IMG/VR virus record: IMGVR_UViG_3300045988_068683
DNA length: 32,691 bases
Reading direction: 5' to 3' (one strand)
Source: a virus
Positions 1,396 through 32,691 of the stretch are shown here, piece by piece (the first letter of the stretch is position 1; every line of letters starts with the position of its first letter). Under the pieces are notes generated by a model. The model ran no database searches. It was not told where the DNA came from and worked only from the letters and a program-made list of their open reading frames with translations. Position numbers and translations under genes: made by a program.

Positions 1396-2147
1396 TGGAA
1401 ATCGTAGTGCATCAGGGCGAGTCTGCTGACGGCACCCCCTTAGCGGCGGATGACGTGGATACTATCGACGTGAAGAATCCGGCTCAGGCGACCAACAAGC
1501 TCGTATCCACGTTGAACGAGTATGGTCGGCGCCTACGCGAATTGGAGAAGCCTTCCGGCTCGCAGTTGACTCAGGCGATTCAGAAGGTGTTGGATATCAG
1601 TGCGAACATCGACCAGACTGTGGCCGCATCCATCAGCCGGAACTCGTACGACCGGGCGACCATCGACCAGAAGTGCAATGCTTGGAATTGGGGTGTGCTG
1701 TCTACCGACCGTGGTGGCACGCATACGACGAACGCCTACAGCAATCTGTTCACGGTCGGCCCGTGGCGTGCGGTGTGGGCGTTGTCGGACGGCACGATGG
1801 GCACGTCGCAGTCCAGCCGCAAGGTGAAGCAGGATTTCATCGAGCCGGACATTACGTTGGAGCAGATGCGTTCCGTTGATTGGATGCTCTACCGTTTCAT
1901 CGACGATGTGAACCGGAACGGCGATAGTGCGACCATCCATGTTGGCATGATTGCCGAAGAGTTGGACGATAACGGCTTGGGGCTGTTCGTCGAGTATAAT
2001 GATGATTACGAGCCTGTTGGCATCAACTATCCGATGCTGGGCGTGTGGGCCATACATGAGGCACATCTCGCCCATGACCGTATCGACCGGCTTGAGGAAC
2101 GTTTGAAAGCGTTGGAAGGAAAGATTGATAATGGCGTTGAGGAATAG
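1395..2147 (+). CDS. Short tail fibre protein with C-terminal intramolecular chaperone (peptidase S74) domain
   Basis: TAATG start/stop overlap. The C-terminal part (SSRKVKQDF, DWMLYRFIDD, HVGMIAEELD, INYPMLGVWAIHEAH, then a coiled coil) resembles the auto-cleaving chaperone of phage fibres and spikes. Confidence 0.6.
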   Translation: MEIVVHQGESADGTPLAADDVDTIDVKNPAQATNKLVSTLNEYGRRLRELEKPSGSQLTQAIQKVLDISANIDQTVAASISRNSYDRATIDQKCNAWNWGVLSTDRGGTHTTNAYSNLFTVGPWRAVWALSDGTMGTSQSSRKVKQDFIEPDITLEQMRSVDWMLYRFIDDVNRNGDSATIHVGMIAEELDDNGLGLFVEYNDDYEPVGINYPMLGVWAIHEAHLAHDRIDRLEERLKALEGKIDNGVEE

Positions 2148-3102
2148 TATCTTCGCGGTGTCCGGTAATGCGTCGTTTCTAGATGCGCGCCGTGACATGA
2201 GCGGCCTGTTTGTCTGCGATAAGACCACGATGCTTCCGATTGCCGGTATTCTTGACCGTTCGCAGGATAATCTCGTGACCGGCAACAGCAATTCCATGGG
2301 TGTGACGGTGCATCCGTTCAACGCGGTGCTGAACCGTTACGGCGCGTTGCTTATCCAGAACGATGGCGATGTGAAAGTGCCGTTGAATGCTGCCCCGTCC
2401 GCTAATTCGCGTATCGACGTGGTGTATGTGAAGCAGCATGAGAGGCGCCCGCCAATGTCGGACGATTCGGATTTTCCTGTGTTCGGAGTTATGCAAGGCG
2501 TTGCCGCCGCGACGCCTGTGGCGCCCAGTGTTCCGGATGGCGCTTTGGCTTTGGCTCAGGTGCTGCTTCCGGCTGGCGTGTCGAACACGGCCGCTGCTGG
2601 CGTGGTCATCACGCAGACGTATATTGGTGCGGCCATGAAGGGTGACATGCTGCGTGTGCAGACTTCCGCCCAGCGTGACGCCTTGACCGAAGTGCCTGAC
2701 GGTACGTTGTTGCATAATGTGGCCGATAATTGCGATTATATCAGAAAAGACGATAAGTGGAAGTTCGAAGGATTCTTTACGGAGAGCAACCTTCTCAACA
2801 AGAACACTGCCGGATGGGATGTTGCGCAGATTCGCGGCGCCGTCCACAACGGCATTGCGAACGGGTTCTTCTGGGTCAATCGCGCCGGAGATTGGCGTAA
2901 CGCAAAAGCTTGGGATTCTTCGCACGTACTCGACTTCCCGGACTCTCTTAAGGCGAAAGGCATCGACCTGAATACCGCCACATCAAACAAGGATGTGGTG
3001 CTGCAAATCATCAACAACAGTATCAACATCCGTCCGACCGTGAACCGTGACTTCGTGAAAGGAGAGTGGGTTTCCGGCAGTTTCTCCTACCAGCTGGCGT
3101 AG
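2131..3102 (+). CDS. Tail fibre / receptor-binding protein. Its last 114 aa lie inside the invertible segment.
   Basis: ATG 2131 follows GGAAGGA (the track starts at TTG 2125). The N-terminal 210 aa look like an actinophage minor-tail shaft (RIDVVYV, LAQVLLPAG, DALTEVPDGTLL). The conserved junction ADNCDYIRKDDKW is encoded by the left inverted repeat. Confidence 0.7.
   Translation: MALRNSIFAVSGNASFLDARRDMSGLFVCDKTTMLPIAGILDRSQDNLVTGNSNSMGVTVHPFNAVLNRYGALLIQNDGDVKVPLNAAPSANSRIDVVYVKQHERRPPMSDDSDFPVFGVMQGVAAATPVAPSVPDGALALAQVLLPAGVSNTAAAGVVITQTYIGAAMKGDMLRVQTSAQRDALTEVPDGTLLHNVADNCDYIRKDDKWKFEGFFTESNLLNKNTAGWDVAQIRGAVHNGIANGFFWVNRAGDWRNAKAWDSSHVLDFPDSLKAKGIDLNTATSNKDVVLQIINNSINIRPTVNRDFVKGEWVSGSFSYQLA
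2722..2760. repeat. Inverted repeat, left arm (IR-L) of the fibre inversion segment
   Basis: gccgataattgcgattatatcagaaaagacgataagtgg matches the reverse complement of 3438-3476 at 36 of 39 positions. Similarity ends sharply at both edges. Confidence 0.9.
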
Positions 3103-3437
3103 TCCAATTGGAGGGCTTAGCCGATATTGTAGGTGAAAATGGTAGAAGCGGTGCGAGACCCTGAAGAGCCACCAGCATATTCGATGTACACGTTGCCGTT
3201 GTCTGCAACGCCTGCAACGGTCGGAGAATAGCTGTCTCTCGTTGGCACATAGACGCCTTCGGAGTTTACCGGATAGAATGCGGTGTTATTCACCTGCCCG
3301 ACAACCACCTTCGAACCCCAGCCGGTCAGATTGATGTTCGCGGTCAGCAGGTCGATGTTTCCCGTACCGCCAGAAGCCCACATATGCACCTTGTTCGCAC
3401 CGAGGTGAATGTCACGCCACGGCATGTTCCATCCGCG
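2761..3437. other. Putative invertible segment holding two convergent alternative fibre C-termini
   Basis: Bounded by the 39-bp inverted repeats. It contains the 3' end of 2131..3102 (+) and a start-less cassette on the minus strand. The two stops are 14 nt apart (3100-3102 and 3117-3119). Confidence 0.7.
3117..3425 (-). CDS. Silent alternative C-terminal cassette of the fibre gene. The reading frame actually extends through IR-R to 3476.
   Basis: The minus frame reads LADNCDYVRKGDKW-RGWNMPWRDIHLG...FTYNIG-stop. There is no ATG/GTG/TTG between the upstream in-frame TGA (3504-3506) and the repeat. ATG 3425, used by the ORF track, lies after the conserved junction. Confidence 0.65.
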   Translation of the reverse strand: MPWRDIHLGANKVHMWASGGTGNIDLLTANINLTGWGSKVVVGQVNNTAFYPVNSEGVYVPTRDSYSPTVAGVADNGNVYIEYAGGSSGSRTASTIFTYNIG

Positions 3438-3476
3438 CCACTTATCGCCTTTTCTGACATAATCGCAATTATCAGC
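3438..3476. repeat. Inverted repeat, right arm (IR-R) of the fibre inversion segment
   Basis: The reverse complement, gctgataattgcgattatgtcagaaaaggcgataagtgg, is in frame and encodes ADNCDYVRKGDKW. Confidence 0.9.
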
Positions 3477-3490
3477 TAAAATGGTGTCAC

Positions 3491-3862
3491 ATGAGCACTG
3501 ACATCATCGTCGCCCTAGTGACCGGATTTTGCGCCATCGTGGTCGCAGCGGTCACTTGGGCGCAAAACAGACGCGGCGACCTGAGCGAAGCCTACAGGCG
3601 GCTTTCGGAAGCCCAATTGAACATGCAGCGGGAAATCGACCGGCAGGACGAGAAGCTTGCCGAATTCATTCAGGAACGCGACGAACTCCGCTATCAGGAC
3701 GATTTGAAAACCTCCTACATTAGGGCGATTGGTCATTGGCTTGGCGAACTCTGCAACGTTCTCGACCCGGGGTTTCTGAAACAGTATCCGAAGCCAAGAC
3801 TTCCTGACGGTTTAAGGAGTACAATAGAACCGTTGGTAGACATCAACAGTAAGGAGCAGTGA
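3491..3862 (+). CDS. Membrane-anchored coiled-coil protein, first gene of the lysis cassette (function unknown)
   Basis: 123 aa with an N-terminal hydrophobic helix (IIVALVTGFCAIVVAAVTW), then a charged coiled-coil region. It sits directly upstream of the holin. Confidence 0.5.
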   Translation: MSTDIIVALVTGFCAIVVAAVTWAQNRRGDLSEAYRRLSEAQLNMQREIDRQDEKLAEFIQERDELRYQDDLKTSYIRAIGHWLGELCNVLDPGFLKQYPKPRLPDGLRSTIEPLVDINSKEQ

Positions 3863-4141
3863 ATGTTGTTCACCAAGGATTTTTGGGTTGACACGTTTGA
3901 GCGTGCAATCCGCACCGCATGTCAAGCCGCATTGTCGGCTGGCGTGGTCGGCGGCGCCGGCCTGTTCCAAGTGGATTGGCTGAACGTCTGCGGCATCGCC
4001 TTGGTCGCCGCCATTGCCAGCGTGCTGACGTGCGTGGCGTCGAGCGGCAAGACCGATTCAATCAGCCCGGCATCCTTCGTGATGTCCGATAAGGCGAAGG
4101 TAACTGGCAAGCATATCGCAGATACGGAGGTTTCGAAATAA
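3863..4141 (+). CDS. Holin (r1t-like family)
   Basis: 92 aa. FWVDTFERAIRTACQAAL followed by two hydrophobic helices is the r1t-type holin pattern. It abuts the endolysin. Confidence 0.75.
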   Translation: MLFTKDFWVDTFERAIRTACQAALSAGVVGGAGLFQVDWLNVCGIALVAAIASVLTCVASSGKTDSISPASFVMSDKAKVTGKHIADTEVSK

Positions 4142-5067
4142 TGAGGATTGTGGATATTAGCAATTGGAAGGCCGACATTGACGTTTCCAAGATTGACGCC
4201 GATGGCGTGGTAGTCCAGTGTACTTGGGGCGCGGGCGAATGTTCGAACGACCATGGTCTGGTGAATTCCGTGTGGACAGGCGCGGACGCGAAGATTCAGG
4301 CCGCAGCCAAGCGTGGTCTTGCGGTCGGATACATGCATTATATTCGTGGCGTCGGCGCTTCGGAGGAGGCGTATTTCTTCGCCGAACATACCAAGGGTTA
4401 TCTTGGCAAGTTCGTACCAGCCGTTGACTGGGAGGCGGACGATAACGCCGCTTGGGGCAATCGTGCCTATCTTGACGAGTTCCTTTACCAGTACATCCGA
4501 CTGACCGGTGTGAAGCCGCTCGTGTATGCGCAGCGTTCCGAAATCCCGTTCATCAAGGATATTTGCGCCAAGCATGATTGCGGCATTTGGGAGGCGTGCT
4601 ATGCTTCCATGGATGCGGTCGGCTGGCAGGATGCCGATTCCATTTGGTCGTATGTGGCGTATCCAATGCGTCAGTACACGTCGAACGGCCATATCGGAGG
4701 CTATGCCGGTTCGCTTGATTTGAACTATTTCGCTGGCGATAAGGCCGCTTGGGACAGGTATGCGTGTGTCGGCGCGAACACTCCCGTGAATCCGGCTCCG
4801 GTGCCGGTGGTTGACCCGTCTCCTGCCGTGGTCGCAACCACGTATGAGGTTACGGTCGACGCATTGAACGTGCGCACCGAACCGTCGCTGAAGGGGCAGG
4901 TTGTGGCAAGTTACAGTCGCGGCGAGAAGGTCGTGCTGGATGGTTGGGGTGCTTATGCTGACGGCTTCCTGTGGGGTCGTTATGTCGGCGCTTCTTCGGG
5001 CCAGCCGAGGTATGTCGCCATTGGCACTGAGTCCGGCAATGACTGGTATTTGACAATGTGCCGTTAG
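4141..5067 (+). CDS. Endolysin: GH25 muramidase plus C-terminal SH3b-like cell-wall-binding domain
   Basis: VDISNWKADIDVSKI...DGVVVQCTWG and DLNYFAGD are GH25-like. After a Pro-rich linker, YEVTVDALNVRTEPSLKGQVV...GEKV is SH3-like. Confidence 0.8.
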   Translation: MRIVDISNWKADIDVSKIDADGVVVQCTWGAGECSNDHGLVNSVWTGADAKIQAAAKRGLAVGYMHYIRGVGASEEAYFFAEHTKGYLGKFVPAVDWEADDNAAWGNRAYLDEFLYQYIRLTGVKPLVYAQRSEIPFIKDICAKHDCGIWEACYASMDAVGWQDADSIWSYVAYPMRQYTSNGHIGGYAGSLDLNYFAGDKAAWDRYACVGANTPVNPAPVPVVDPSPAVVATTYEVTVDALNVRTEPSLKGQVVASYSRGEKVVLDGWGAYADGFLWGRYVGASSGQPRYVAIGTESGNDWYLTMCR

Positions 5068-5315: not shown

Positions 5316-5684
5316 TCAGAACTTCTCTCCTTGCGCTTCCATCTTCCGCTTCATACGCCACACCTTGTGGTCTATCATGCGCCGCAAGTCGGATGATTTC
5401 AACCCGTAGATTTCGACCAGCAGGTCGAAGCATATCAGCGCGTCGGCCATCTCCTCATACAGGTTTTCGATAAGCTCGTTTCGGCCGACCATATTGGTCG
5501 GGTCTTCGGGATTGAAGCGTTTGAGCTTGCTGATTGCCTGAATGAGTTCGGCGAATTCCTCCATGCAGACGGTGGTTTGCGTGTCGGCGCCGTACCGTGC
5601 GATGCTTCGCATTTTCACGGCGCTTTCCTGTTCGGGGCTTAGATAGTATTTGCGGCTGTCACGCCAGTCTTGTTCAATCGCCAC
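5316..5684 (-). CDS. MazG-like nucleotide pyrophosphohydrolase
   Basis: 122 aa. EEFAELIQAISK and EEMADALICFDLL are the paired acidic helices of small MazG-like enzymes. GTG start. Confidence 0.6.
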   Translation of the reverse strand: MAIEQDWRDSRKYYLSPEQESAVKMRSIARYGADTQTTVCMEEFAELIQAISKLKRFNPEDPTNMVGRNELIENLYEEMADALICFDLLVEIYGLKSSDLRRMIDHKVWRMKRKMEAQGEKF

Positions 5685-8896: not shown

Positions 8897-9032
8897 CGTG
8901 GTGTCCCGAATGGTTGATGGCGTCGATGATGCCTTTGACCACACCGATGAGGATAAGGATGACCGCCGTGATTCCAAGCACGGACAGGATGATGACGAGC
9001 AGGTACAGGCAGTTCATCATGAACTCATGCAT
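8886..9032 (-). CDS. Small single-pass membrane protein (48 aa)
   Basis: Below the track cutoff. GAAGGAG precedes ATG 9032. Translation is MHEFMMNCLYLLVIILSVLGITAVILILIGVVKGIIDAINHSGHHDEK. Confidence 0.45.
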   Translation of the reverse strand: MHEFMMNCLYLLVIILSVLGITAVILILIGVVKGIIDAINHSGHHDEK

Positions 9033-9930
9033 TTTTCTTCTCCTTCACCACGCTGAGACGCGTGGTCTTTGATGTTTTCTGGAATGGGGTCAGGTCGGCT
9101 GGATGCTTGGTGAAATACGCTTTGTAGTCGGTGGTGGTGCGCGTGGTTTCCGCCAGTCTTGCGACGTGTCCGGCGCATGACACTCGTTCGCCGGGGTGTT
9201 CGTCCAGCCATGTGGCGAGCTTTTCCTTCAGCGCCTCGTACCGGTCTTTCGCTTCCAACAGTTCGGCCAACAGTTGCCGTCCGCCATTGTCGGCTGGATG
9301 TTCCGCACGCTCGTATTCCGCCGCATGCTTCTCCAATGCGCCAACGTCCATCACGTCGGGGACGATTACGATGTCGAGTGTTTCCTTGATTCGCTTGGTG
9401 ATGTGGTCGGCGTTCAGCGTCTCCCATGACGGGGGGCGTTGCGCGTAGATGATTTCCGCATAATCCGTGTCCATCATGCGGGCCTCTATCTGAGCTTGGG
9501 CCGCATATTGGCCGCGCTGTTCCGTGGAGAGGAACGCATAGGATGGTTTGCTGCCCGTCTTCACTTCGACGGTGTGCAGGAGGCCACCATGGTCGCGGTA
9601 TGCGGCGTCCAATGAGACGTGCAGGCGTCCGTCGGTGTAGAAGCTGTTGTCATACCATGCGAGCTGTCCGTTCTCCAGTTTTTCGACGGGCGTGTTCTTG
9701 GCGACGATGGCGAGTTGCAGGTGTTCCGCATACAGTTTGACGAGCATTGGTTCCCAGATGCTGCCGAACTGCAATGCCGACTGTACGGCGGGAACGTCGG
9801 GCGGGGGTGATGGCAGTTGTCCGGTGGCGATGAAATGCGCGAGACTGGACGCGCCTATCGTTTTCTCGCGGGCTTTAAGCCATGCCTCGCGGTCTTTGAA
9901 GACGCGGTATGTCAGATTTTTTTCGTCCAT
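9025..9930 (-). CDS. YqaJ/lambda-Exo-type recombination exonuclease (PD-(D/E)xK)
   Basis: 301 aa. IGASSLAHF near the N-terminus, then SLDAAY...VEVKTG, matches the YqaJ viral recombinase pattern. Confidence 0.65.
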   Translation of the reverse strand: MDEKNLTYRVFKDREAWLKAREKTIGASSLAHFIATGQLPSPPPDVPAVQSALQFGSIWEPMLVKLYAEHLQLAIVAKNTPVEKLENGQLAWYDNSFYTDGRLHVSLDAAYRDHGGLLHTVEVKTGSKPSYAFLSTEQRGQYAAQAQIEARMMDTDYAEIIYAQRPPSWETLNADHITKRIKETLDIVIVPDVMDVGALEKHAAEYERAEHPADNGGRQLLAELLEAKDRYEALKEKLATWLDEHPGERVSCAGHVARLAETTRTTTDYKAYFTKHPADLTPFQKTSKTTRLSVVKEKKNA

Positions 9931-11312: not shown

Positions 11313-11786
11313 TCAGTTGAATTCTTCTGTGAGGGAGGGGCGTGGGAGGGGGGCGGCTGTCTTGCCGTCATCATCCATCACGGTTGTGAGTCCAAGCAGA
11401 TGGATTAGACCATAACGCCGATAGTATGTTTCGAAGCTGCCCACCTGCTGGGCCGCGGCCGCTGGATACGTGTAGCTGCTGCTGACCGCTTCGCCTTGCT
11501 TAACCATGTCCATGAGGTTTTCGCCCTCATGCGTGGCTTCGTAGACGGCGATTGTGAGCGTGTTGTACACGGTTGGCATGTCAGTGTCGGCGCCGACTAT
11601 CTCGCTTGAGCAGACGGCTGTCCAGCCTAGGCCATGTTCTTCCATGCTGCTCTTGACAAGCTGCCAAACGTCAACCAGCGTGGCGTACTTGTAGCCGTAC
11701 CCCTCAGTCGTGCGCTTCACCGCTTCCACGGACTGCTGCACTTCCGCGATTCTGCTGAACACGTCGTGCCGTTTATCGTTCGCCAT
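11313..11786 (-). CDS. ERF-family single-strand annealing protein
   Basis: GYGYKYATLVDVWQLVKSSMEEHGL and YYRRYGLIHLLGL resemble ERF motifs. Confidence 0.6.
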   Translation of the reverse strand: MANDKRHDVFSRIAEVQQSVEAVKRTTEGYGYKYATLVDVWQLVKSSMEEHGLGWTAVCSSEIVGADTDMPTVYNTLTIAVYEATHEGENLMDMVKQGEAVSSSYTYPAAAAQQVGSFETYYRRYGLIHLLGLTTVMDDDGKTAAPLPRPSLTEEFN

Positions 11787-12229: not shown

Positions 12230-12727
12230 TCATTTCCAATACATGTTGGACACCCATACGCCACGGGAGAGTTCAATCGGCTCGCCCTCAAGCCACTTGA
12301 GACAGCCGTGGGGGGTTATAAGCGCGACATACCCTTGCCCGTCGAACACTGAATTGTTGTATCCGCTCTCAATCCACGCGTCAACCATGTTGCGGGAGTC
12401 GGACGCGTACGGGCCGACTTCGTACTTCCACGCGATACCGTTGTGCGCCACATAGCCCCTATCCGTGTGGAATGGGTGGCAGTTGCGCGGCTCTACCGCG
12501 CCATGCGTGGCGAGACGGAAGTGAATCAGGCACGGGGCGTCACGCAACTGCTGCCAATGGCTGTAGACGAAGCCAACCACTTTCAGCGGGTCAACGTTCT
12601 TGAAGACCCTCAGGCGCTCGCCATCCCACCAACTGACACCGCCCCCGTCCGGGTTGGCCTCACTCATGGCTAGGATGTCCTCAGGCTCAGGCATGGAGCC
12701 GGGTACTGCTGTCGCAATCACACACAT
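12230..12727 (-). CDS. Stand-alone class-II (Ntn) glutamine amidotransferase domain protein
   Basis: Met-Cys N-terminus (MCVIAT), HFRLATHG and NCHPF. 165 aa. Confidence 0.7.
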   Translation of the reverse strand: MCVIATAVPGSMPEPEDILAMSEANPDGGGVSWWDGERLRVFKNVDPLKVVGFVYSHWQQLRDAPCLIHFRLATHGAVEPRNCHPFHTDRGYVAHNGIAWKYEVGPYASDSRNMVDAWIESGYNNSVFDGQGYVALITPHGCLKWLEGEPIELSRGVWVSNMYWK

Positions 12728-12784: not shown

Positions 12785-14422
12785 TCAGGCGTTGCCCCGC
12801 GTGGCTGCGATATGCTTGCGGATACGCACGTAACGTTCGGACAGTTCGGGGCGTCCCGCACGCTTGAGCATGCGCAACGCGGTGCGTTCCAGCGGTTCGG
12901 CCACCGGCTTGCCGTGGGACGCGCGTGCGATACGGCTGCGAACAATGTTCGCGGCCACGCGCTGGGCGGTGTCGCCATGTCGGCCGACGTACTCGAACCC
13001 GTTCCAAATGTTGTCGCCACTGTGCGCGTGGTACAAGTGGAAGAAGTCAAGAATCGGGGACTTGTCGCCCGCCTCAACCATAGCCGTAGCCATCTGCACG
13101 TAGCGGTGCAGCGGCCGCAGATTACGGGACGGGAGCGCGTAGCAGAGTTCGGGGGCCAGCAGGCGTTCCTCGACGCGCTTGCGGCCACGCTCACGGCGCT
13201 CCTCATGCCTGCGGTATTCGGTGGCAGCGGGGAGCGTGTCGCCATGACCACGACGCGCCTTGCGGGACGCCTTCACGTTGAACACGACACGACGGCGGAT
13301 TTCGTCCGCGCGTTCCTTACGCTCACATTCCTCTTGCATCTTCATGGCGGCCTTGACACGACGTGCCGCGTCGAGCCGTTCGGCGAGCGTGCGACGGGGC
13401 GCGTCGAGCACGTTATCGGCCATGCACGAAGAGTACTGTTCGATGAGAGCAGCCGTCACCGTGCCGCGGGGGTGCCTTTCGAAGAAGCGCCACATGGCGC
13501 GCACCCACTTGACGGCCGGGATAAGCTTATGGGCGCTGCCCGCATACCAACAGTCGAACGTACGCAGCTCGATAGTGTCCGCATGCTCGTCGTTGACGGC
13601 AGTGTGCTTGCCCGTGTACTCGCCATGAGTGAGGGAGCACCAATAATCATCGTCAACGTGGCGCATGTTGAGCAGACTGCACTGGGACGCGCTCAGCCCG
13701 TGCAGCGCCCAATACCACCGGCTAGCGCATTGGTTGCCCGTGCGGGCCACGTGGATATGCCCGCCCGCGTTCTCGCCGTATTCCGGGATGCCCTCGACGA
13801 TACGCTTCAAGGCGGGCAGTTTGGACATGTCGAGGATATTGGACTGCAATTCCGCCCCGTTGTGTTCTAGCGACGGGTCCTTGTCCCAACCGGCAATGAC
13901 GGCAGAGTCCGCGACTGCTTCCACGAAATCATCGGACAAGTCGGACTCAAGTTCAATCTCGACGCCGAAAGTGAATTGATTGCCGTCACCGAACGCGTAC
14001 GGGTAGATATAAGAGGGTTCCTTGCCGTTCATGAACGCTTCAGCGTCACGGTGGCGCGGGCAATAGTAGCCGTCGTACATGCCGCCCCTGCAGTGCTCGC
14101 ACAGCACGGCACAGCAATCGTAGACGTCACACGAATAGTACTCGCCACTGTCCGGGTCAATCGGCGTGCCGCATTGCGCGCACCAATAGTCCTCGTCTTC
14201 GAAGTCCCTCGCGTTGCTCACGCGTCGCATTCCGTCGCCGTTGGCGAAACACACGTACAGCTCGTCGCCGATTGCCACGCATTGCGTGTCACCTTCCGGC
14301 CACTGGGCGCGATACGCCTTGAAGAGGCGTTGCGCTTTGCCGTCGCGTTCAATCCAGTCGGCGTACGGTTCACCGCCCATGATTGCGATTCTGTCAGCCA
14401 TTGTTACCACTACTCCCTTCAT
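12785..14422 (-). CDS. GS/GCS2-like amidoligase (Amidoligase_2-type) with a Cys-rich N-terminal region and a long basic C-terminal extension
   Basis: FGVEIELES, HNGAELQS, GGHIHV and TIELRTF form the core. The N-terminal part has CAQCGTP...CCAVLCEHC...YYCPRH. An alternative start is ATG 14401 (MADRIAIMGG). Confidence 0.7.
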   Translation of the reverse strand: MKGVVVTMADRIAIMGGEPYADWIERDGKAQRLFKAYRAQWPEGDTQCVAIGDELYVCFANGDGMRRVSNARDFEDEDYWCAQCGTPIDPDSGEYYSCDVYDCCAVLCEHCRGGMYDGYYCPRHRDAEAFMNGKEPSYIYPYAFGDGNQFTFGVEIELESDLSDDFVEAVADSAVIAGWDKDPSLEHNGAELQSNILDMSKLPALKRIVEGIPEYGENAGGHIHVARTGNQCASRWYWALHGLSASQCSLLNMRHVDDDYWCSLTHGEYTGKHTAVNDEHADTIELRTFDCWYAGSAHKLIPAVKWVRAMWRFFERHPRGTVTAALIEQYSSCMADNVLDAPRRTLAERLDAARRVKAAMKMQEECERKERADEIRRRVVFNVKASRKARRGHGDTLPAATEYRRHEERRERGRKRVEERLLAPELCYALPSRNLRPLHRYVQMATAMVEAGDKSPILDFFHLYHAHSGDNIWNGFEYVGRHGDTAQRVAANIVRSRIARASHGKPVAEPLERTALRMLKRAGRPELSERYVRIRKHIAATRGNA

Positions 14423-16243: not shown

Positions 16244-16280
16244 GCGCGCGCACGAGAATGACCCTCCCAAACCCCAATGA

Positions 16281-16451
16281 ATGTAGGATGTAGGTGTAGG
16301 TAATAGGGGTATTAGGATTTTTTTTCGGGACTATTTATATATATATACGCGCGCGCGCGTACCGCCGTCGGGATGCGGATGTCGGGTCGAGTCGAAAAAT
16401 GCAAAAAAAAAAAATCCCAGAACACCCACTTACATTTCCTACATCCTACAT
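16281..16451. repeat. 14-bp perfect inverted repeat flanking an AT-rich, alternating purine-pyrimidine and poly-A core
   Basis: atgtaggatgtagg (16281-16294) pairs with cctacatcctacat (16438-16451). Inside are T8 (16318-16325), (TA)n(CG)n over 26 nt (16336-16361) and A12 (16403-16414). Confidence 0.8.
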
Positions 16452-16554
16452 TTCCTGTGGAAACCAACGATTTCCGACACGCCGTAGGAGAAGGCTCGTA
16501 GCGAGTGTGCTAGGATTGAACCTGTTGAAATCAACTATACCACAGGAGAAGACC

Positions 16555-28003: not shown

Positions 28004-31000
28004 ATGGCAAAGGGCAGCATCGCGACCGCATGGATACAAGTACTCCCATCGTTGGAAGGCTTGCAGTCCGCACTTGTCAAAGCAAGCAAGGGCGCGGTGC
28101 TCACCCCCGCCATCCAGCCCAAACTGGCATCCGGCACAAGCCGACTCTTCGCTTCGAACGGCTTGGGTATGTCCAGACTGTTTTCCGGCTCGTTCAATAA
28201 GAGCCTCAATCTGCAAGGCGGCGTGAAAAACGCGCTTAACGGCGTGTTCGCATCCTTCGGTTCCAGTGGTCGGCGTTCGGCCAACGCTTTCGGCAGCGGG
28301 TTCGCTAACCTCGACCTCGGCAAGTATCTGAACGCCGCAGCAGCCATCGCCGCTGTAGCATCGGTCGGCAAAGCCGTCAAAACCGTCACGTCCAACATTG
28401 TCGAAATGGGCAACCAGTGGGGTCAGACCACCGCCATGCTGAAAAACGCGGTAGGCGCCACCGGAGATTATAAAGACTCGCTCGAAACGTCGCTGGAATA
28501 CGCGAACAAGGTCGGCGTCTCCACGGACGATTTCATCCAGTCCGCGGCACGTCTCCGCACGCTCGCGCCGGAAGTCGTGACCAATTACGGTGACGCGGCG
28601 AAGTTCACCAAACTGCTCGACATGAACATGATTAGCACGGGCGCGTCCACGCAGGAAGCGTCCAGTGCCATGCGGCAGATTACCCAAGCATTGGGCAAGG
28701 GCATTGTCAACGGCGATGAGTTGAATTCCATCATGGAGAACTCGCCGCAAATCGCACGAATGCTCGCCAAGCATCTCAACGCGTCCGTAGGCGACCTGAA
28801 ACAGTTGGGCAAGGAAGGCTCAATCAGCGGCCAAGCCCTCTATGATACTGTGTTGGAGAACGCCGACGCCATCGAAAAGCAGTTCGCCGCCATGCCTGTC
28901 ACGGCAGACCGCGCGTGGAACAGCATCAAGAACACGATTGGCGCAAGGTCTTCGGAAGCCGCTACCGCATTGTCTGCGAATCTCGGCAAGACGTTGACCG
29001 CCATTTCCAATTCGGGCATGGTGGACACGTTCGGCGAAATGCTCGCTGGATTCGTGCCACTGTCGAACGCGGCAGCGACGTTGGCTTCGACGTTCGTAGA
29101 CCAGCTTGCGCCAGCCGTCAACAAGGCGTTCAACGTGCAGCAGGTCGAACAGTTCCTCAGCCCGTTGACGAATCTCATCAGCCTGAACTCGCAGAACGCC
29201 AACCTCCTATCCTCCTTCGGCGACGCGCTGAACACCGTAGGCGTCATCGGCACCACCGTATTCTCCCTCATGGTCGCCACGAACGACCGGTTCGCATCCC
29301 GCATCCCGTTCATCGGAACCGCGCTGGTGGGAGTGAAGAACACGCTCGTCAAACTTGGTTCCGGCTTCACAAGCGCGTTCGGGGTCGCCGTGTCCGCATC
29401 AGCTGCGGCCATCGACAAGCTCGCGTCCATGTCCGACGCGATGGCGAAAATGCTGTCCGAATCGACGAGGGTGCAGAACGCGCTCGGCAAGTTCAACGTC
29501 GCGTTCGAAGACTTGGGGTCGTACGCGTTCAGTTTCGGTGAGAAGGGCGCGGCAGGTTTCGATATCGTCCAGAAGGCCGCGTCGAATCTGCTGAACGGCG
29601 TCGGGTACGTATCCGACAATGTGAAGCTTCTGCAAAGCGGTTTGAACGCGATGGGTTCCGACGCTGAAGCGATTCCCGAAGCGTTTCTCAAAGCGTTCGA
29701 AACCCTCGGCACGGAAATTGATGCCGCCGCGCGGAAGAAGGCCCCATCCCTCATCCAAGCGTTCCGCGACATTCGCGCCGCCGCCGACACCATCGTCGTG
29801 GATTCGGACATCTACCGTTCGTTGGACACAGCCGGACAAAGCGCGGACATCTACCGTGACAAGCTCGTGCAGGTGGGACGCGAGTTCAAGGAGCTTACCG
29901 GCTTCAAGATTCCTGACATGTTCCTTCCATTGGTTGGTTCGGCCGTGTCCGCGTCCGACAGCATCATGCAGACGTTCGGCAATCTGAAGGCCGGATTAGC
30001 CAACTATGCCGCGAACACGGCGCAGCAGTGGGCGCCGGTCAAGGAGATTTTCGCCGAAGCCTTCTCGAACGCCGCCGCATCCGTCAAGACGAAGATGGAA
30101 GCCATGCGAGCTGATGTCGAATCCGGCGTGCTCTCCATGGTCGAAAACGTGAAGGGCAAGGCGTCCGAGTTCAAGGCGGCGTTCGACGAAATGCTGGACG
30201 TGACCGGCATTGGCGACACCATGTCCAAGCTTGGCTCGGCGGTAGGCAATGGGCTTTCATCCGTCAAGGGCGCGCTCAAGTCGTTCGGCTCCGAAGCGGC
30301 ATCCGCGTTGTCGGCTCCGTTCAATGGTCTTGCTGAAAAGGTTTTCGGCTCGTTCAAAGGGCAGAATCCGTTCGCGCCGTTAACTTCAGCAGCGAAGACG
30401 GTCAGCGCCGGACTGTCCGCCACGGTCGGTGGCGCCGTGTCGCGTCTTGCCGGACGGTTCAGCCCGTTGGCGTCCGCTGGAAAAGCGGCCTTCGCCACCA
30501 TCGGCTCCGCCGCGTTGAAGGTGTCTTCCGGCGCGTTGAAGGGCTTTGGCGTGGCCGTGAATGGAGTCGGTGCGGCAATCGGCAAGATTGGCGGCATCGC
30601 ATCCCAGCTGGGCGTGACCGGCGCGATATTCACCGGCCTGACCACCGGATTTCAGACACTGTTCAAACTCGACCCGTCCCAGATGACAGGCAAGTTCGAC
30701 GAATGGCAGAAAAGCCTCGACAATACGCTTACCGGCATCCAGACGAAGCTGCCAGCAATGGCGAGCGCGTTCGCCGCCGCCCTCCCACAGATGGTGGCGA
30801 GCGTCACCGCGGCATTGCCGGGCATCGCCAACGCGCTCATGAGCGTTGGGCAGACGCTCGCACCCGCACTGACGACGATATTGCCGCAAATCACCCAAGC
30901 GTTCTCCGACATGTTCGCCCAGCTGCCCGGCTTCATCGCCACCTACGGCCAGCCGATGCTGGAAGCGTTCGGCACGCTGTTCGCTACGATGGCGGCGCAG

Positions 31001-32023
31001 ATTCCGTCGCTCATGACCTCGCTTGGTCAGGCGTTGGTGGCTGGCGTTCAGGCCGCGTTCAGCGCCATCAGCGACAATAGTGGTGCCATCGCCGGATTCA
31101 TCAGCGGATTCGGCGCATCACTGGCTTCCGGCCTCCAAACGCTGGGAGCCACCGTGGTGGCCGCGCTCCCGTCCATCGGACAGAGCATCGCCTCCGCGCT
31201 GCCGACGCTGATTCCCTCATTGATGTCAGCGATTACCAGTGTGATAACGTCGCTGGCCGCCGCATTGCCGGGCATCGCCGTAGCCATCATCAACCAGCTT
31301 CCGGCAATCATCGGTGGTTTGGCGACCGGCATCGTCAACGGCCTGCCAACGCTGCTGGGCGCCTTCATTAGCGTGGTGACTAGCATCGCCGCGAACTTCC
31401 CGAGCATTTTCATGGCTGTTGTTGGCGCGGTTCCCGCGATTATCGGAAACATCGCCCGACCGTTCGCCGGATTGGGTGGTCGTATCCTCGGCTTTATCAG
31501 AGGCATTCCGGGTCAAATCACGGGCCTGTTCGCCGGCGCTGGCTCGTGGCTGGTCAATTCCGGCGCCGCGTTGATGAACGGTTTCAAACAGGGTATCCTC
31601 AACGCGGTCGAAAGCGTGAAAAGCGCGGTGAAGGGCGCGTTGCAGAAGGTTCGAGACTTCTTCCCGTTCTCCCCTGCTAAGGTCGGCCCGTTCTCCGGCT
31701 CCGGCTATACCAGCGTGTCAGGCGAGCATCTTATGCGCGACTTCGGCAAGGCCATCGGCGCCCAAGGCGCGTTCGTGCGCGGGCAGGTCGACGGCGTGCT
31801 CGGCTCCTTGGATTTCGACCAGATTGACGCCAGCGGTCTTGGCATGGTGTCGGCGCCGCAGCTTAAAGACTATACTGGAATGGTGTCAGCTGGCGACCAG
31901 CGGTATGCTGGCGGCGTCCACATCGACAATGTGGTGGCAAGCCCGTTGAGCGACGTGGAACTCGTGGCCCGCCGATTCGGATACGCGTTGAACAATGAGA
32001 TGATTGGAAGTGTCAGACCTTGA
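28004..32023 (+). CDS. Tape measure protein
   Basis: 1339 aa. It has the TMP core motif (MRQITQALGKGIVNGDELNSIMENSPQIARMLAKHL) and a long Ala/Gly/Ser-rich region with LP-periodic hydrophobic repeats. Confidence 0.9.
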   Translation: MAKGSIATAWIQVLPSLEGLQSALVKASKGAVLTPAIQPKLASGTSRLFASNGLGMSRLFSGSFNKSLNLQGGVKNALNGVFASFGSSGRRSANAFGSGFANLDLGKYLNAAAAIAAVASVGKAVKTVTSNIVEMGNQWGQTTAMLKNAVGATGDYKDSLETSLEYANKVGVSTDDFIQSAARLRTLAPEVVTNYGDAAKFTKLLDMNMISTGASTQEASSAMRQITQALGKGIVNGDELNSIMENSPQIARMLAKHLNASVGDLKQLGKEGSISGQALYDTVLENADAIEKQFAAMPVTADRAWNSIKNTIGARSSEAATALSANLGKTLTAISNSGMVDTFGEMLAGFVPLSNAAATLASTFVDQLAPAVNKAFNVQQVEQFLSPLTNLISLNSQNANLLSSFGDALNTVGVIGTTVFSLMVATNDRFASRIPFIGTALVGVKNTLVKLGSGFTSAFGVAVSASAAAIDKLASMSDAMAKMLSESTRVQNALGKFNVAFEDLGSYAFSFGEKGAAGFDIVQKAASNLLNGVGYVSDNVKLLQSGLNAMGSDAEAIPEAFLKAFETLGTEIDAAARKKAPSLIQAFRDIRAAADTIVVDSDIYRSLDTAGQSADIYRDKLVQVGREFKELTGFKIPDMFLPLVGSAVSASDSIMQTFGNLKAGLANYAANTAQQWAPVKEIFAEAFSNAAASVKTKMEAMRADVESGVLSMVENVKGKASEFKAAFDEMLDVTGIGDTMSKLGSAVGNGLSSVKGALKSFGSEAASALSAPFNGLAEKVFGSFKGQNPFAPLTSAAKTVSAGLSATVGGAVSRLAGRFSPLASAGKAAFATIGSAALKVSSGALKGFGVAVNGVGAAIGKIGGIASQLGVTGAIFTGLTTGFQTLFKLDPSQMTGKFDEWQKSLDNTLTGIQTKLPAMASAFAAALPQMVASVTAALPGIANALMSVGQTLAPALTTILPQITQAFSDMFAQLPGFIATYGQPMLEAFGTLFATMAAQIPSLMTSLGQALVAGVQAAFSAISDNSGAIAGFISGFGASLASGLQTLGATVVAALPSIGQSIASALPTLIPSLMSAITSVITSLAAALPGIAVAIINQLPAIIGGLATGIVNGLPTLLGAFISVVTSIAANFPSIFMAVVGAVPAIIGNIARPFAGLGGRILGFIRGIPGQITGLFAGAGSWLVNSGAALMNGFKQGILNAVESVKSAVKGALQKVRDFFPFSPAKVGPFSGSGYTSVSGEHLMRDFGKAIGAQGAFVRGQVDGVLGSLDFDQIDASGLGMVSAPQLKDYTGMVSAGDQRYAGGVHIDNVVASPLSDVELVARRFGYALNNEMIGSVRP

Positions 32024-32691
32024 GCACGATAACCGTCACAGTGGGTGACATCACGCTTTACGGCGACGCCGGACACGATTTCACACTGGTGTCCATAAGC
32101 GGTTTCGACGATTTGCCGTCAGCCAAGACCGAACAGGATGCTTGGCCTAGGGCTGACGGCAACGCCGTTCCCGGCACCACATACTATGATGGGCGCACCA
32201 TCACCATCAACGGATACTATGCGACCAGTACGGTCGAAGATACGGACGAGATGATGCGCCGTCTCCGCGGCATGGCCGGACGTTTGGTTCCAGTCACCGT
32301 GCAGAAGGGCGCTGGCGTCACATTGTCATGCGATGCGGAACTCAGGTCGATGACCGTTGACGAATACCGGTATCGTGGGAAGGCCGCGTTCCAGATTGGA
32401 TTACTCGCGCCATCCCCCTACCTGTATGGGCCTTTGCGCTCGCAGACGGTCGGCGTGCCGACTGACGGCGAAGGCATCACTGACCCACTGCTCGACCCAT
32501 TGTCCGAAGGCGAAGTCGGCAATCCGGGACGTGTAGCCATCACCGGAAGCGGTTTCGCACCGACGCATCTTGTCGTGAAAATCAGAGGCGGACTCTCCGA
32601 AGGCGTGCGCATCCACTGCATCGAAACAGGCGAAGCGGTCGAATTCCACCGTCAAATCAACCCCGACGAGACGATGGTGTTCGACTTCGAC
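32020..32691 (+). CDS. Distal tail protein (Dit-like), 5' part; continues at nt 56 after the junction
   Basis: TTG 32020 overlaps the TMP stop (TTGA), with GGAAG 9 nt upstream. The frame is open to the window end and in phase with 2..217. The ORF track misses it because it has no stop inside the window end. Confidence 0.7.
   Translation, partial: MSTITVTVGDITLYGDAGHDFTLVSISGFDDLPSAKTEQDAWPRADGNAVPGTTYYDGRTITINGYYATSTVEDTDEMMRRLRGMAGRLVPVTVQKGAGVTLSCDAELRSMTVDEYRYRGKAAFQIGLLAPSPYLYGPLRSQTVGVPTDGEGITDPLLDPLSEGEVGNPGRVAITGSGFAPTHLVVKIRGGLSEGVRIHCIETGEAVEFHRQINPDETMVFDFD
32637..32691. repeat. Terminal direct repeat, copy 2
   Basis: Identical to nt 1-55. Confidence 0.9.

Follow-up and report, generated by a model that had tools for sequence, protein, structure and literature searches.

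A probable two-state inversion switch in the receptor-binding protein gene of an apparently virulent Bifidobacterium siphophage

Can a phage exchange the tip of its receptor-binding protein (RBP) by turning over a part of its own gene if it encodes no invertase? This question is raised by the virus record IMGVR_UViG_3300045988_068683, a stretch of 32,691 nucleotides (nt) from a human-gut metagenome (ENA ERZ28580130, scaffold_489; SAMEA4545370), which was analysed at its full length and is called the window here. Its last structural gene, lying between the gene of a Peptidase_S74 protein and the lysis cassette, encodes a receptor-binding tail protein and is followed on the opposite strand by a second possible ending, and both endings lie between inverted repeats (Table 1). 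From the letters alone, it had been proposed that the segment between these repeats flips and thereby provides the protein with another C-terminus. Taken together, it is quite probable that the RBP gene of this virulent Bifidobacterium siphophage contains an inversion switch of the gene-altering kind with two states.

Two convergent heads between inverted coding repeats

In a repeat search, the left arm (IR-L) and the right arm (IR-R) were by far the best inverted repeat of the whole window. The arms are 39 nt long, complementary at 36 of 39 positions (92%) and 677 nt apart, and a 25-nt core within them occurred exactly twice in the window and not once in 100 dinucleotide shuffles. Both arms are in frame and encode, on either strand, the same peptide, ADNCDY(I/V)RK(D/G)DKW. 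The 677 nt between them contain only two convergent cassettes, 14 nt apart, termed head A and head B. The minus-strand frame of head B is shut upstream of IR-R by a TGA (3504-3506) nine codons away, and no ATG, GTG or TTG is found before the arm. Gene callers show head B as an orphan 102-aa gene (3117-3425). The arms, their reading frames and the two convergent endings had been described in the sequence-only reading and were confirmed.

When the segment was flipped in silico, residues 1–197, the arm and the minus-strand cassette were joined to an uninterrupted protein of 316 amino acids (aa), so that the claimed in-frame fusion of the second C-terminus also held. For this fusion, 902 homologues were found at E ≤ 1e-20, the best of which was 93% identical over 100% of the length, and the natural homologues included hundreds of 316-aa metagenomic proteins. 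In the cultured phage BA720P3, the gene runs from the constant part via ADGCDYVRKGNKW into RGWNMPWRD...PYNIG and a stop codon. This expressed head is 79% identical to the silent head B of the window, and BA720P3 has no reverse cassette. A search of the C-terminal peptides among phage proteins had been suggested beforehand, and it revealed that head B is a genuine C-terminus of full-length proteins in nature, namely in BA720P3 and in hundreds of metagenomic proteins.

Both C-termini were further studied by structure prediction. AlphaFold2 models were built with family alignments and were confident only for the C-terminal third of the protein. In the model of a natural B-type protein, the head reached predicted local distance difference test (pLDDT) values of 85–97, and head A reached about 90. 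By Foldseek, head B matched the RBP heads of TP901-1 (ORF49), p2 and bIL170 (E 4e-4 to 1e-3, prob 1.00, TMt ≤ 0.68). Head A matched the bIL170 RBP head 2fsd (TMt 0.68) and the TP901-1 RBP 4ios (TMt 0.67) with weak E-values, and adenovirus fibre heads were next in rank. Heads A and B are only about 18% identical to each other, and both are predicted to fold as receptor-binding heads of the TP901-1/p2 type. From these modelled folds, the protein appears to be an RBP with exchangeable heads. The arm is a predicted beta-strand at the base of the head (residues 201–206, pLDDT about 85).

Orientation and upkeep of the segment in related genomes

Related loci, numbered with an L, were gathered from IMG/VR via the constant region (58 loci), from ENA via close protein matches (2 contigs) and from metagenomes via the arm core (17 contigs). 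Across the 58 IMG/VR loci and eight cultured isolates, the constant region had 84–97% aa identity regardless of the C-terminus. Downstream of the arm, the heads fell into four main types (A, B, C and D). Among about 75 loci, no genome had more than two cassettes, and in two-cassette genomes, head B was always partnered by A or by C. Two cassettes were present in about 33 related genomes, about 40% of the sampled genomes were two-headed, and about half of the lineage was single-headed.

In the two-headed genomes, every combination occurred in both states. Head A was expressed and B silent in 7 genomes, and B was expressed and A silent in 7 genomes as well; the combination of expressed C with silent B was seen in 7 genomes and that of expressed B with silent C in 12. 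The 755-bp segment of the window aligned end to end in reverse with L012, L009, L017 and L004 (91–93%) and forward with L006, L008, L011 and L013 (90.6–91.7%). The proposal that the second C-terminus can be reached by flipping was thus borne out, as the same segment exists in both orientations among related genomes. Orientation was scattered on the trees built from either flank, and likewise on the tree of the orientation-normalised segment. The latter required 4–5 Fitch changes for 12 A/B genomes, no fewer than random labels did (mean 4.1), and 3–4 changes for 13 C/B genomes. The closest inner segment was oppositely oriented in 10 of 12 A/B genomes and in 4 of 11 C/B genomes. Thus, orientation is without phylogenetic signal. 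Because the inner segment is not sorted by orientation, as an old split would demand, the segment must have been inverted repeatedly and in both directions.

An alternative would be that no inversion is going on and that two ancient alleles persist and are exchanged by recombination in the flanks between co-infecting phages. These phages are highly mosaic, which would allow such an exchange: L006 and L004 share 99.3% identity in the 3 kb upstream as against 87% downstream, and they carry the segment in opposite orientations. Four IMG/VR contigs (L005, L026, L010 and L016) end at IR-L or at most 16 nt from it, a pattern that is explained equally well by co-existing strains. With ancient alleles, however, it is difficult to reconcile that the closest inner segments of the A/B set are mostly oppositely oriented, that parsimony requires as many changes as with random labels and that the same pattern was found independently in the C/B pairs. 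In addition, flank exchange cannot yield the arm-to-arm homogenisation within genomes that is described below. Persistence of two ancient alleles is therefore regarded as very improbable. Contig ends at the arm (the four mentioned and L072) were also considered as a sign of heterogeneity within a sample, but they were not decisive, as assemblies break there too if co-existing strains have different heads.

Some results weigh against recurrent flipping or limit its pace. The trees are neighbour-joining trees of short, recombining sequences, and the evidence for flipping comes from comparisons between related genomes and not from within one phage population. Among 5.8 billion proteins, no flipped protein of the same strain was found, the best match to the fusion being 93% and not about 100% identical, and an exact 76-nt pattern of the window-specific flipped junction had no match in metagenome contigs. 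Since these same-strain searches found no flipped form, flips could be infrequent over the course of an infection. Exact look-ups of the two proteins of the window returned only the source contig.

The upkeep of the silent cassette is seen in the substitution pattern. The ratio of non-synonymous to synonymous substitution rates (dN/dS) in pairs of reversed cassettes was 0.39 for A, 0.33 for B and 0.31 for C, and in pairs of expressed cassettes, it was 0.59, 0.28 and 0.39, respectively. Purifying selection acts alike on silent and expressed cassettes. Decay of the minus-strand cassette in relatives, which the sequence-only reading had named as a sign against its proposal, was confined to a minority with an in-frame deletion (L012), a 3' frameshift (L015), truncations (L027 and L028) or stubs (L023, L024, L033 and L054). 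As it is usually intact and under purifying selection, the reverse cassette is not a decaying relic. With decay in this minority and about half of the lineage being single-headed, the switch has been gained, kept and lost.

The constraint on the reversed cassettes might also be due to translation in its own right, with 3117-3425 on the minus strand as an independent 102-aa gene starting at ATG 3425 and the repeat as a side effect of a lysis promoter or a past duplication. It is annotated as a coding sequence by gene callers and in GenBank, the ATG is preceded at a distance of 3 nt by a GGATGG, and the arm overlaps a promoter-like site of the downstream plus-strand gene. However, the methionine in question is an internal conserved residue (RGWNMPW) of full-length proteins in single-cassette genomes. 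Reversed A and C cassettes have no methionine near their 5' end and yet are open right through the arm, and the starts chosen by gene callers for reversed cassettes are inconsistent (92 and 107 aa); independent translation therefore fails to explain the constraint. Moreover, a head without the constant part has no attachment to the tail, and a stand-alone gene does not need the frame that always continues through the arm. An independent gene is thus extremely unlikely.

What a flip would mean for the phage can be approached from the isolates. Those isolated on Bifidobacterium adolescentis express head B, and those isolated on Bifidobacterium pseudocatenulatum express the third head, C (TPSGKWAKTRD...REWRA), and hold a reversed B-type head behind an arm of 25–32 nt. 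This is suggestive of an altered host range upon flipping, although the eight isolates represent only about three lineages, which counts against a general conclusion.

The head repertoire is wider than types A to D. Locus L054, which has an IR-R stub, carries a head F (RENSEWRNLSNIK...SFSYTIK), and L030 has a diverged A-like head. In genomes with head D (L023, L024, L041 and L044, at about 3960–4100 in locus coordinates), a strong terminator-like hairpin directly follows the stop codon of the RBP gene, and behind it lies a reversed mini-cassette of about 28 codons, in the arm of which a TGA replaces the cysteine codon (GATAATTGAGATTAT). From its sequence, this mini-cassette looks like a disabled or vestigial switch. 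In single-head-B genomes (L031, L022 and others), the gene ends with ATC GGC TAG, followed by AAT. The arm begins with GCCGAT, of which ATCGGC is the reverse complement. The outer boundary of IR-R (3471-3482 in the window) thus falls on a microhomology, which may mark how an inverted spare cassette was first gained.

The inversion step and the surrounding genome

The ends of the window overlap exactly over 55 nt (1-55 = 32637-32691) as a direct repeat, which marks the window as a complete, circularly closed genome assembly of about 32.6 kb. Within its approximately 50 open reading frames (ORFs), no tyrosine or serine recombinase, integrase or transposase was found (Pfam at E ≤ 0.01, in some cases at E ≤ 1, and PHROGs), and the scanned ORFs leave no gap big enough for a recombinase gene. 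The absence of an integrase from the complete genome is consistent with a virulent lifestyle. Because the complete genome is devoid of a site-specific recombinase, general homologous recombination is the most likely route of inversion. Genes for general recombination are present: the phage encodes an Erf-family single-strand annealing protein and a RecE-like exonuclease (Table 1), in addition to a protein resembling single-stranded DNA-binding protein (SSB-like) and a VRR-NUC nuclease. By sequence family, Erf is a candidate trans-acting factor for recombination between the arms, with the RecE-like exonuclease as its possible partner.

The arms themselves point in the same direction. In the A/B set, the two arms differed by 1.82 mismatches within a genome compared with 3.22 between genomes (permutation p=0.0002), and synonymous alleles peculiar to a genome were common to both of its arms, right up to their 3' end. 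In A/B pairs, the arms thus evolve in concert within genomes. A fixed-site reciprocal crossover cannot homogenise arms in this way, but heteroduplex repair in general recombination can. Furthermore, arm length tracks the shared coding sequence, with 39 nt in A/B and 25–32 nt in C/B genomes.

The same switch might instead be turned by a dedicated site-specific recombinase acting in trans, supplied by the Bifidobacterium host or a resident prophage, on the 25-nt core GCCGATAATTGCGATTATGTCAGRA; such an explanation differs only in the mechanism step. The core is nearly invariant where two cassettes are present: GATAATTGCGATTAT was found exactly in IR-L of 22 of 24 two-cassette loci as compared with 7 of 24 single-cassette loci. 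It also holds a dyad (ATAAT-TGCG-ATTAT, 5+4+5) that could be a recombinase site. In the one informative close pair, L006 and L004, the crossover lies within the first 17 nt of the arm. A homology of only 25 nt, on which C/B pairs flip, is short for recombination of the RecA type, and in these pairs with a 25-nt arm, homogenisation was not significant (p=0.40). These points weigh against general recombination, the case for which is drawn mainly from the absence of a recombinase and from arm homogenisation in the A/B set. Further, Mavrich et al. 2018 (PMC6109161) proposed a trans-acting invertase for other bifidophages in which an inversion was seen without a recombinase.

Against an enzyme in trans, a 20-nt piece of the arm core had only one chance match, in Microbacterium, in 185,579 representative bacterial genomes. 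As the core is absent from the species-representative genomes, Bifidobacterium included, there is no known native host site of this sequence. The sites of two inversion systems of bifidophages were absent from the window as well: the 11-bp rix site of the Rin system, TTCCCTAACCC, had no match with up to one mismatch allowed, and the 8-bp site CAGGGTTA of the second system did not occur. In addition, the 39-nt arms show conversion-like homogenisation right up to their 3' end and thus past any plausible core, and the length of the arm merely mirrors the extent of shared coding sequence. A recombinase in trans is accordingly considered rather unlikely, and a flip by general recombination on the short coding repeat is favoured over it, at about even confidence.

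In the mechanism proposed, residues 1–197 would fix the protein to the tail tip, and the 13-codon arm is present twice, inverted, around two convergent and unrelated head cassettes of the predicted TP901-1/p2 fold. Recombination between the arms would turn over the 755-bp segment, arms included, by which the silent head would be joined in frame to the constant region, the other head would fall silent, and the downstream lysis genes would remain unaffected. The flip would be made by general homologous recombination on arms of 25–39 bp, either by the phage Erf and RecE-like exonuclease or by host RecA. Flips would occur at low frequency and would then be amplified by selection on the available host.

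A second role of the right arm is suggested by its position. IR-R contributes the -35-like element of a putative promoter in front of the lysis genes (Table 1). A -10-like hexamer (TAGAAT, TAAAAT or TATAAT) keeps the same distance to the downstream ATG in 53 of 58 loci, also in single-cassette genomes with nothing but an IR-R stub, and this stub provides the CTGACA in many single-cassette genomes. The pattern suggests a lysis promoter, leaderless or with a short leader, that is built from IR-R and its flank, and such a promoter may be the reason for the persistence of the stub.

In a more far-reaching reading, which is considered somewhat less likely than not, the locus would be an invertase-free, programmed host-range switch. 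A virulent phage would flip a reversed spare head by means of its own Erf and RecE-like exonuclease on a coding repeat of 25–39 bp, the outer arm would double as the -35 element of the lysis-gene promoter, and in the human gut, the lineage would possibly alternate between Bifidobacterium species, B. adolescentis and B. pseudocatenulatum among them.

Other parts of the genome were considered as candidates for a factor linked to the switch. A 545-aa ORFan (12785-14422, minus strand) was examined as a cryptic enzyme and rejected; it had no Pfam, PHROG or PDB match and is not tied to the switch because the single-cassette phage BA720P3 has it too. This protein has a cysteine-rich segment and a GxExE...HxH motif, which we take to be reminiscent of amidoligases, and its gene adjoins a class-II glutamine amidotransferase-like gene (12230-12727, minus strand). 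It is only 61–65% identical at the aa level in seven isolates and diverges much faster than the structural genes. The gene at 5316-5684 (minus strand) was rejected as a cassette-linked factor, as its 122-aa product is MazG-like and not a recombinase. The window shares this gene with the B. pseudocatenulatum isolates, whereas BA720P3 lacks it, an accessory difference between sublineages that is unrelated to the switch. Finally, an imperfect inverted repeat of 46 nt with TAGG-rich arms and an A/T run (16280-16325 and 16407-16452) lies between the leftward and rightward gene blocks and overlaps the start of a primase-helicase gene (16399). As judged from the sequence, this region may be an origin or a regulatory region.

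The gene neighbourhood is that of known phages. The tail and lysis region is 85–88% identical to eight cultured Bifidobacterium phages, six isolated on B. pseudocatenulatum (BP677P1-P8 and BP742P1) and two on B. adolescentis (BA720P3 and BA746P1). The product of the RBP gene belongs to a PHROG class of virion structural or minor tail proteins, and over its N-terminal 190 residues, it shares 36% identity with Arthrobacter phage proteins annotated as minor tail proteins. The ORF list places the start of this gene at TTG 2125, whereas ATG 2131 agrees with the annotated start (MALRNS) in relatives. The first gene downstream of the switch lies outside the invertible segment and is also found in the single-cassette phage BA720P3.

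Table 1. Positions of the switch elements and of neighbouring and recombination genes in the window
Feature	Position	Strand	Remarks
Receptor-binding tail protein, 323 aa	2131..3102	+	Constant N-terminal part, arm and head A; expressed; from ORF and annotation of relatives
Constant region, residues 1–197	2131..2721	+	Common to all head variants
IR-L, left arm	2722..2760	+	In frame in ORF 2131-3102; encodes ADNCDYIRKDDKW
Head A cassette, KFEGFFTESN...SYQLA	2761..3102	+	Currently expressed; 113-residue tail; stop 3100-3102
Head B cassette, RGWNMPWRD...TYNIG	3117..3437	-	Currently silent; 106-residue tail; stop 3117-3119
IR-R, right arm	3438..3476	-	In frame; encodes ADNCDYVRKGDKW
Promoter-like site, CTGACA (in IR-R), 17 nt, TAAAAT	3454..3482	+	Putative; near-consensus sigma70-like; ends 8 nt before ATG 3491
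Membrane / coiled-coil protein, 123 aa	3491..3862	+	First gene downstream of the switch
Holin	3863-4141		
GH25 lysin	4141-5067		
RecE-like recombination exonuclease	9025..9930	-	PHROG 434 2.4e-13; weak YqaJ match
Erf-family single-strand annealing protein	11313..11786	-	Pfam ERF 1.3e-12
Tape measure protein (TMP)	28004-32023		
Dit	Spans the window ends		
Tal-like minor tail protein	To 1395		
Protein with Peptidase_S74 chaperone domain, 250 aa	1395-2147		

Known inversion systems and significance

Inversion switches in tail fibres are textbook knowledge for temperate coliphages and have also been proposed for prophages of bifidobacteria, and in both, an invertase gene adjoins the switch. As in the Mu G, P1 C, p15B Min and e14 Pin systems, a constant N-terminal part of a tail fibre lies outside the segment, alternative C-termini lie inside it in opposite orientations, and inverted repeats are found at the junction of the constant and variable parts; the outcome in those systems is an alternative host range. 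The likeness to Mu G and P1 C claimed in the sequence-only reading stood for this logic of the switch design but not for the components, as invertase gene, rix site and extra genes in the segment are all absent. Systems of the Mu/P1 type have a serine invertase gene (gin or cin, with Resolvase and HTH_7 domains) beside the segment, whereas no Resolvase or Recombinase match was found in the approximately 50 ORFs here. They use 26-bp crossover sites of the gix/cix type, which have a 2-bp core, together with a Fis-dependent enhancer, whereas the arms here are a protein-coding homology of 25–39 nt; we know of no obvious likeness of the arm to gix. Their segment carries a second gene of the U/U' assembly type, whereas only two head cassettes are present here. 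They also differ from the present case of an apparently virulent siphophage of a Gram-positive actinobacterium with heads of the TP901-1/p2 fold.

Closer in host is the Rin shufflon of dnaJ2-integrated prophages of Bifidobacterium breve and Bifidobacterium longum (Mavrich et al. 2018, PMC6109161). It shares with the window the host genus, a constant RBP N-terminus (Rc) and variable, TP901-1-like C-terminal cassettes (Rv) that are exchanged by inversion (PMC6109161). However, Rin depends on an adjoining gene of an armless tyrosine invertase (rin), and no match to the Phage_integrase family was found in the present genome. Rin also has 3–5 cassettes in a temperate phage, each with a rix site upstream of it, in contrast to two cassettes and no integrase here.

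A second inverted locus without a recombinase was described in the tRNA-Met bifidoprophages 689b-1 and Bb423phi2, for which a simple phase-variation system was proposed (Mavrich et al. 2018, PMC6109161). There, too, the 3' end of a structural gene and a small reverse gene are inverted once without a flanking recombinase. That case comprises two prophages and one inversion at the 8-bp site CAGGGTTA, with gene functions unknown (Mavrich et al. 2018, PMC6109161), whereas the locus studied here has arms of 25–39 nt, heads of RBP fold and dozens of genomes with recurrent flipping, selection on the silent copy and homogenisation of the arms.

Gene-altering programmed inversions were catalogued in bacterial genomes, including prophages, by Milman et al. 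2023 (PMC9881135), with an enrichment of recombinase genes in the vicinity. The catalogued loci share with the window a long gene with a shorter inverted partial copy, coding inverted repeats and a preference for specificity genes including prophage tail fibres (PMC9881135), but the present locus lies in a free virulent phage genome without a recombinase gene. A method paper from 2026 (PMC13501310) merely hints at viral invertons. In the literature search, which did not cover the original paper on the isolates, no description of a switch in these phages was found.

In conclusion, the switch works like Mu G, P1 C and Rin but belongs to none of them because no tyrosine or serine recombinase is encoded. 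The locus lacks the invertase gene, crossover sites and cassette number that define Mu G, P1 C and Min on the one hand and Rin on the other, and only the logic is shared with the tRNA-Met locus. The same logic as in temperate coliphages is now seen in virulent Bifidobacterium phages that form a common lineage in the human gut, with hundreds of metagenomic relatives and no site-specific recombinase encoded.

The system lends itself to direct testing, since such phages are in culture together with their hosts, namely B. pseudocatenulatum for BP677P1-P8 and BP742P1 and B. adolescentis for BA720P3 and BA746P1. If confirmed, spare receptor-binding domains in gut viromes would have been missed systematically through annotation as an orphan 102-aa gene, and host prediction for such phages should weigh both heads. 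Short coding repeats and general recombination may then suffice for a reversible switch of specificity, and the search space for invertons would widen past loci with a nearby recombinase.

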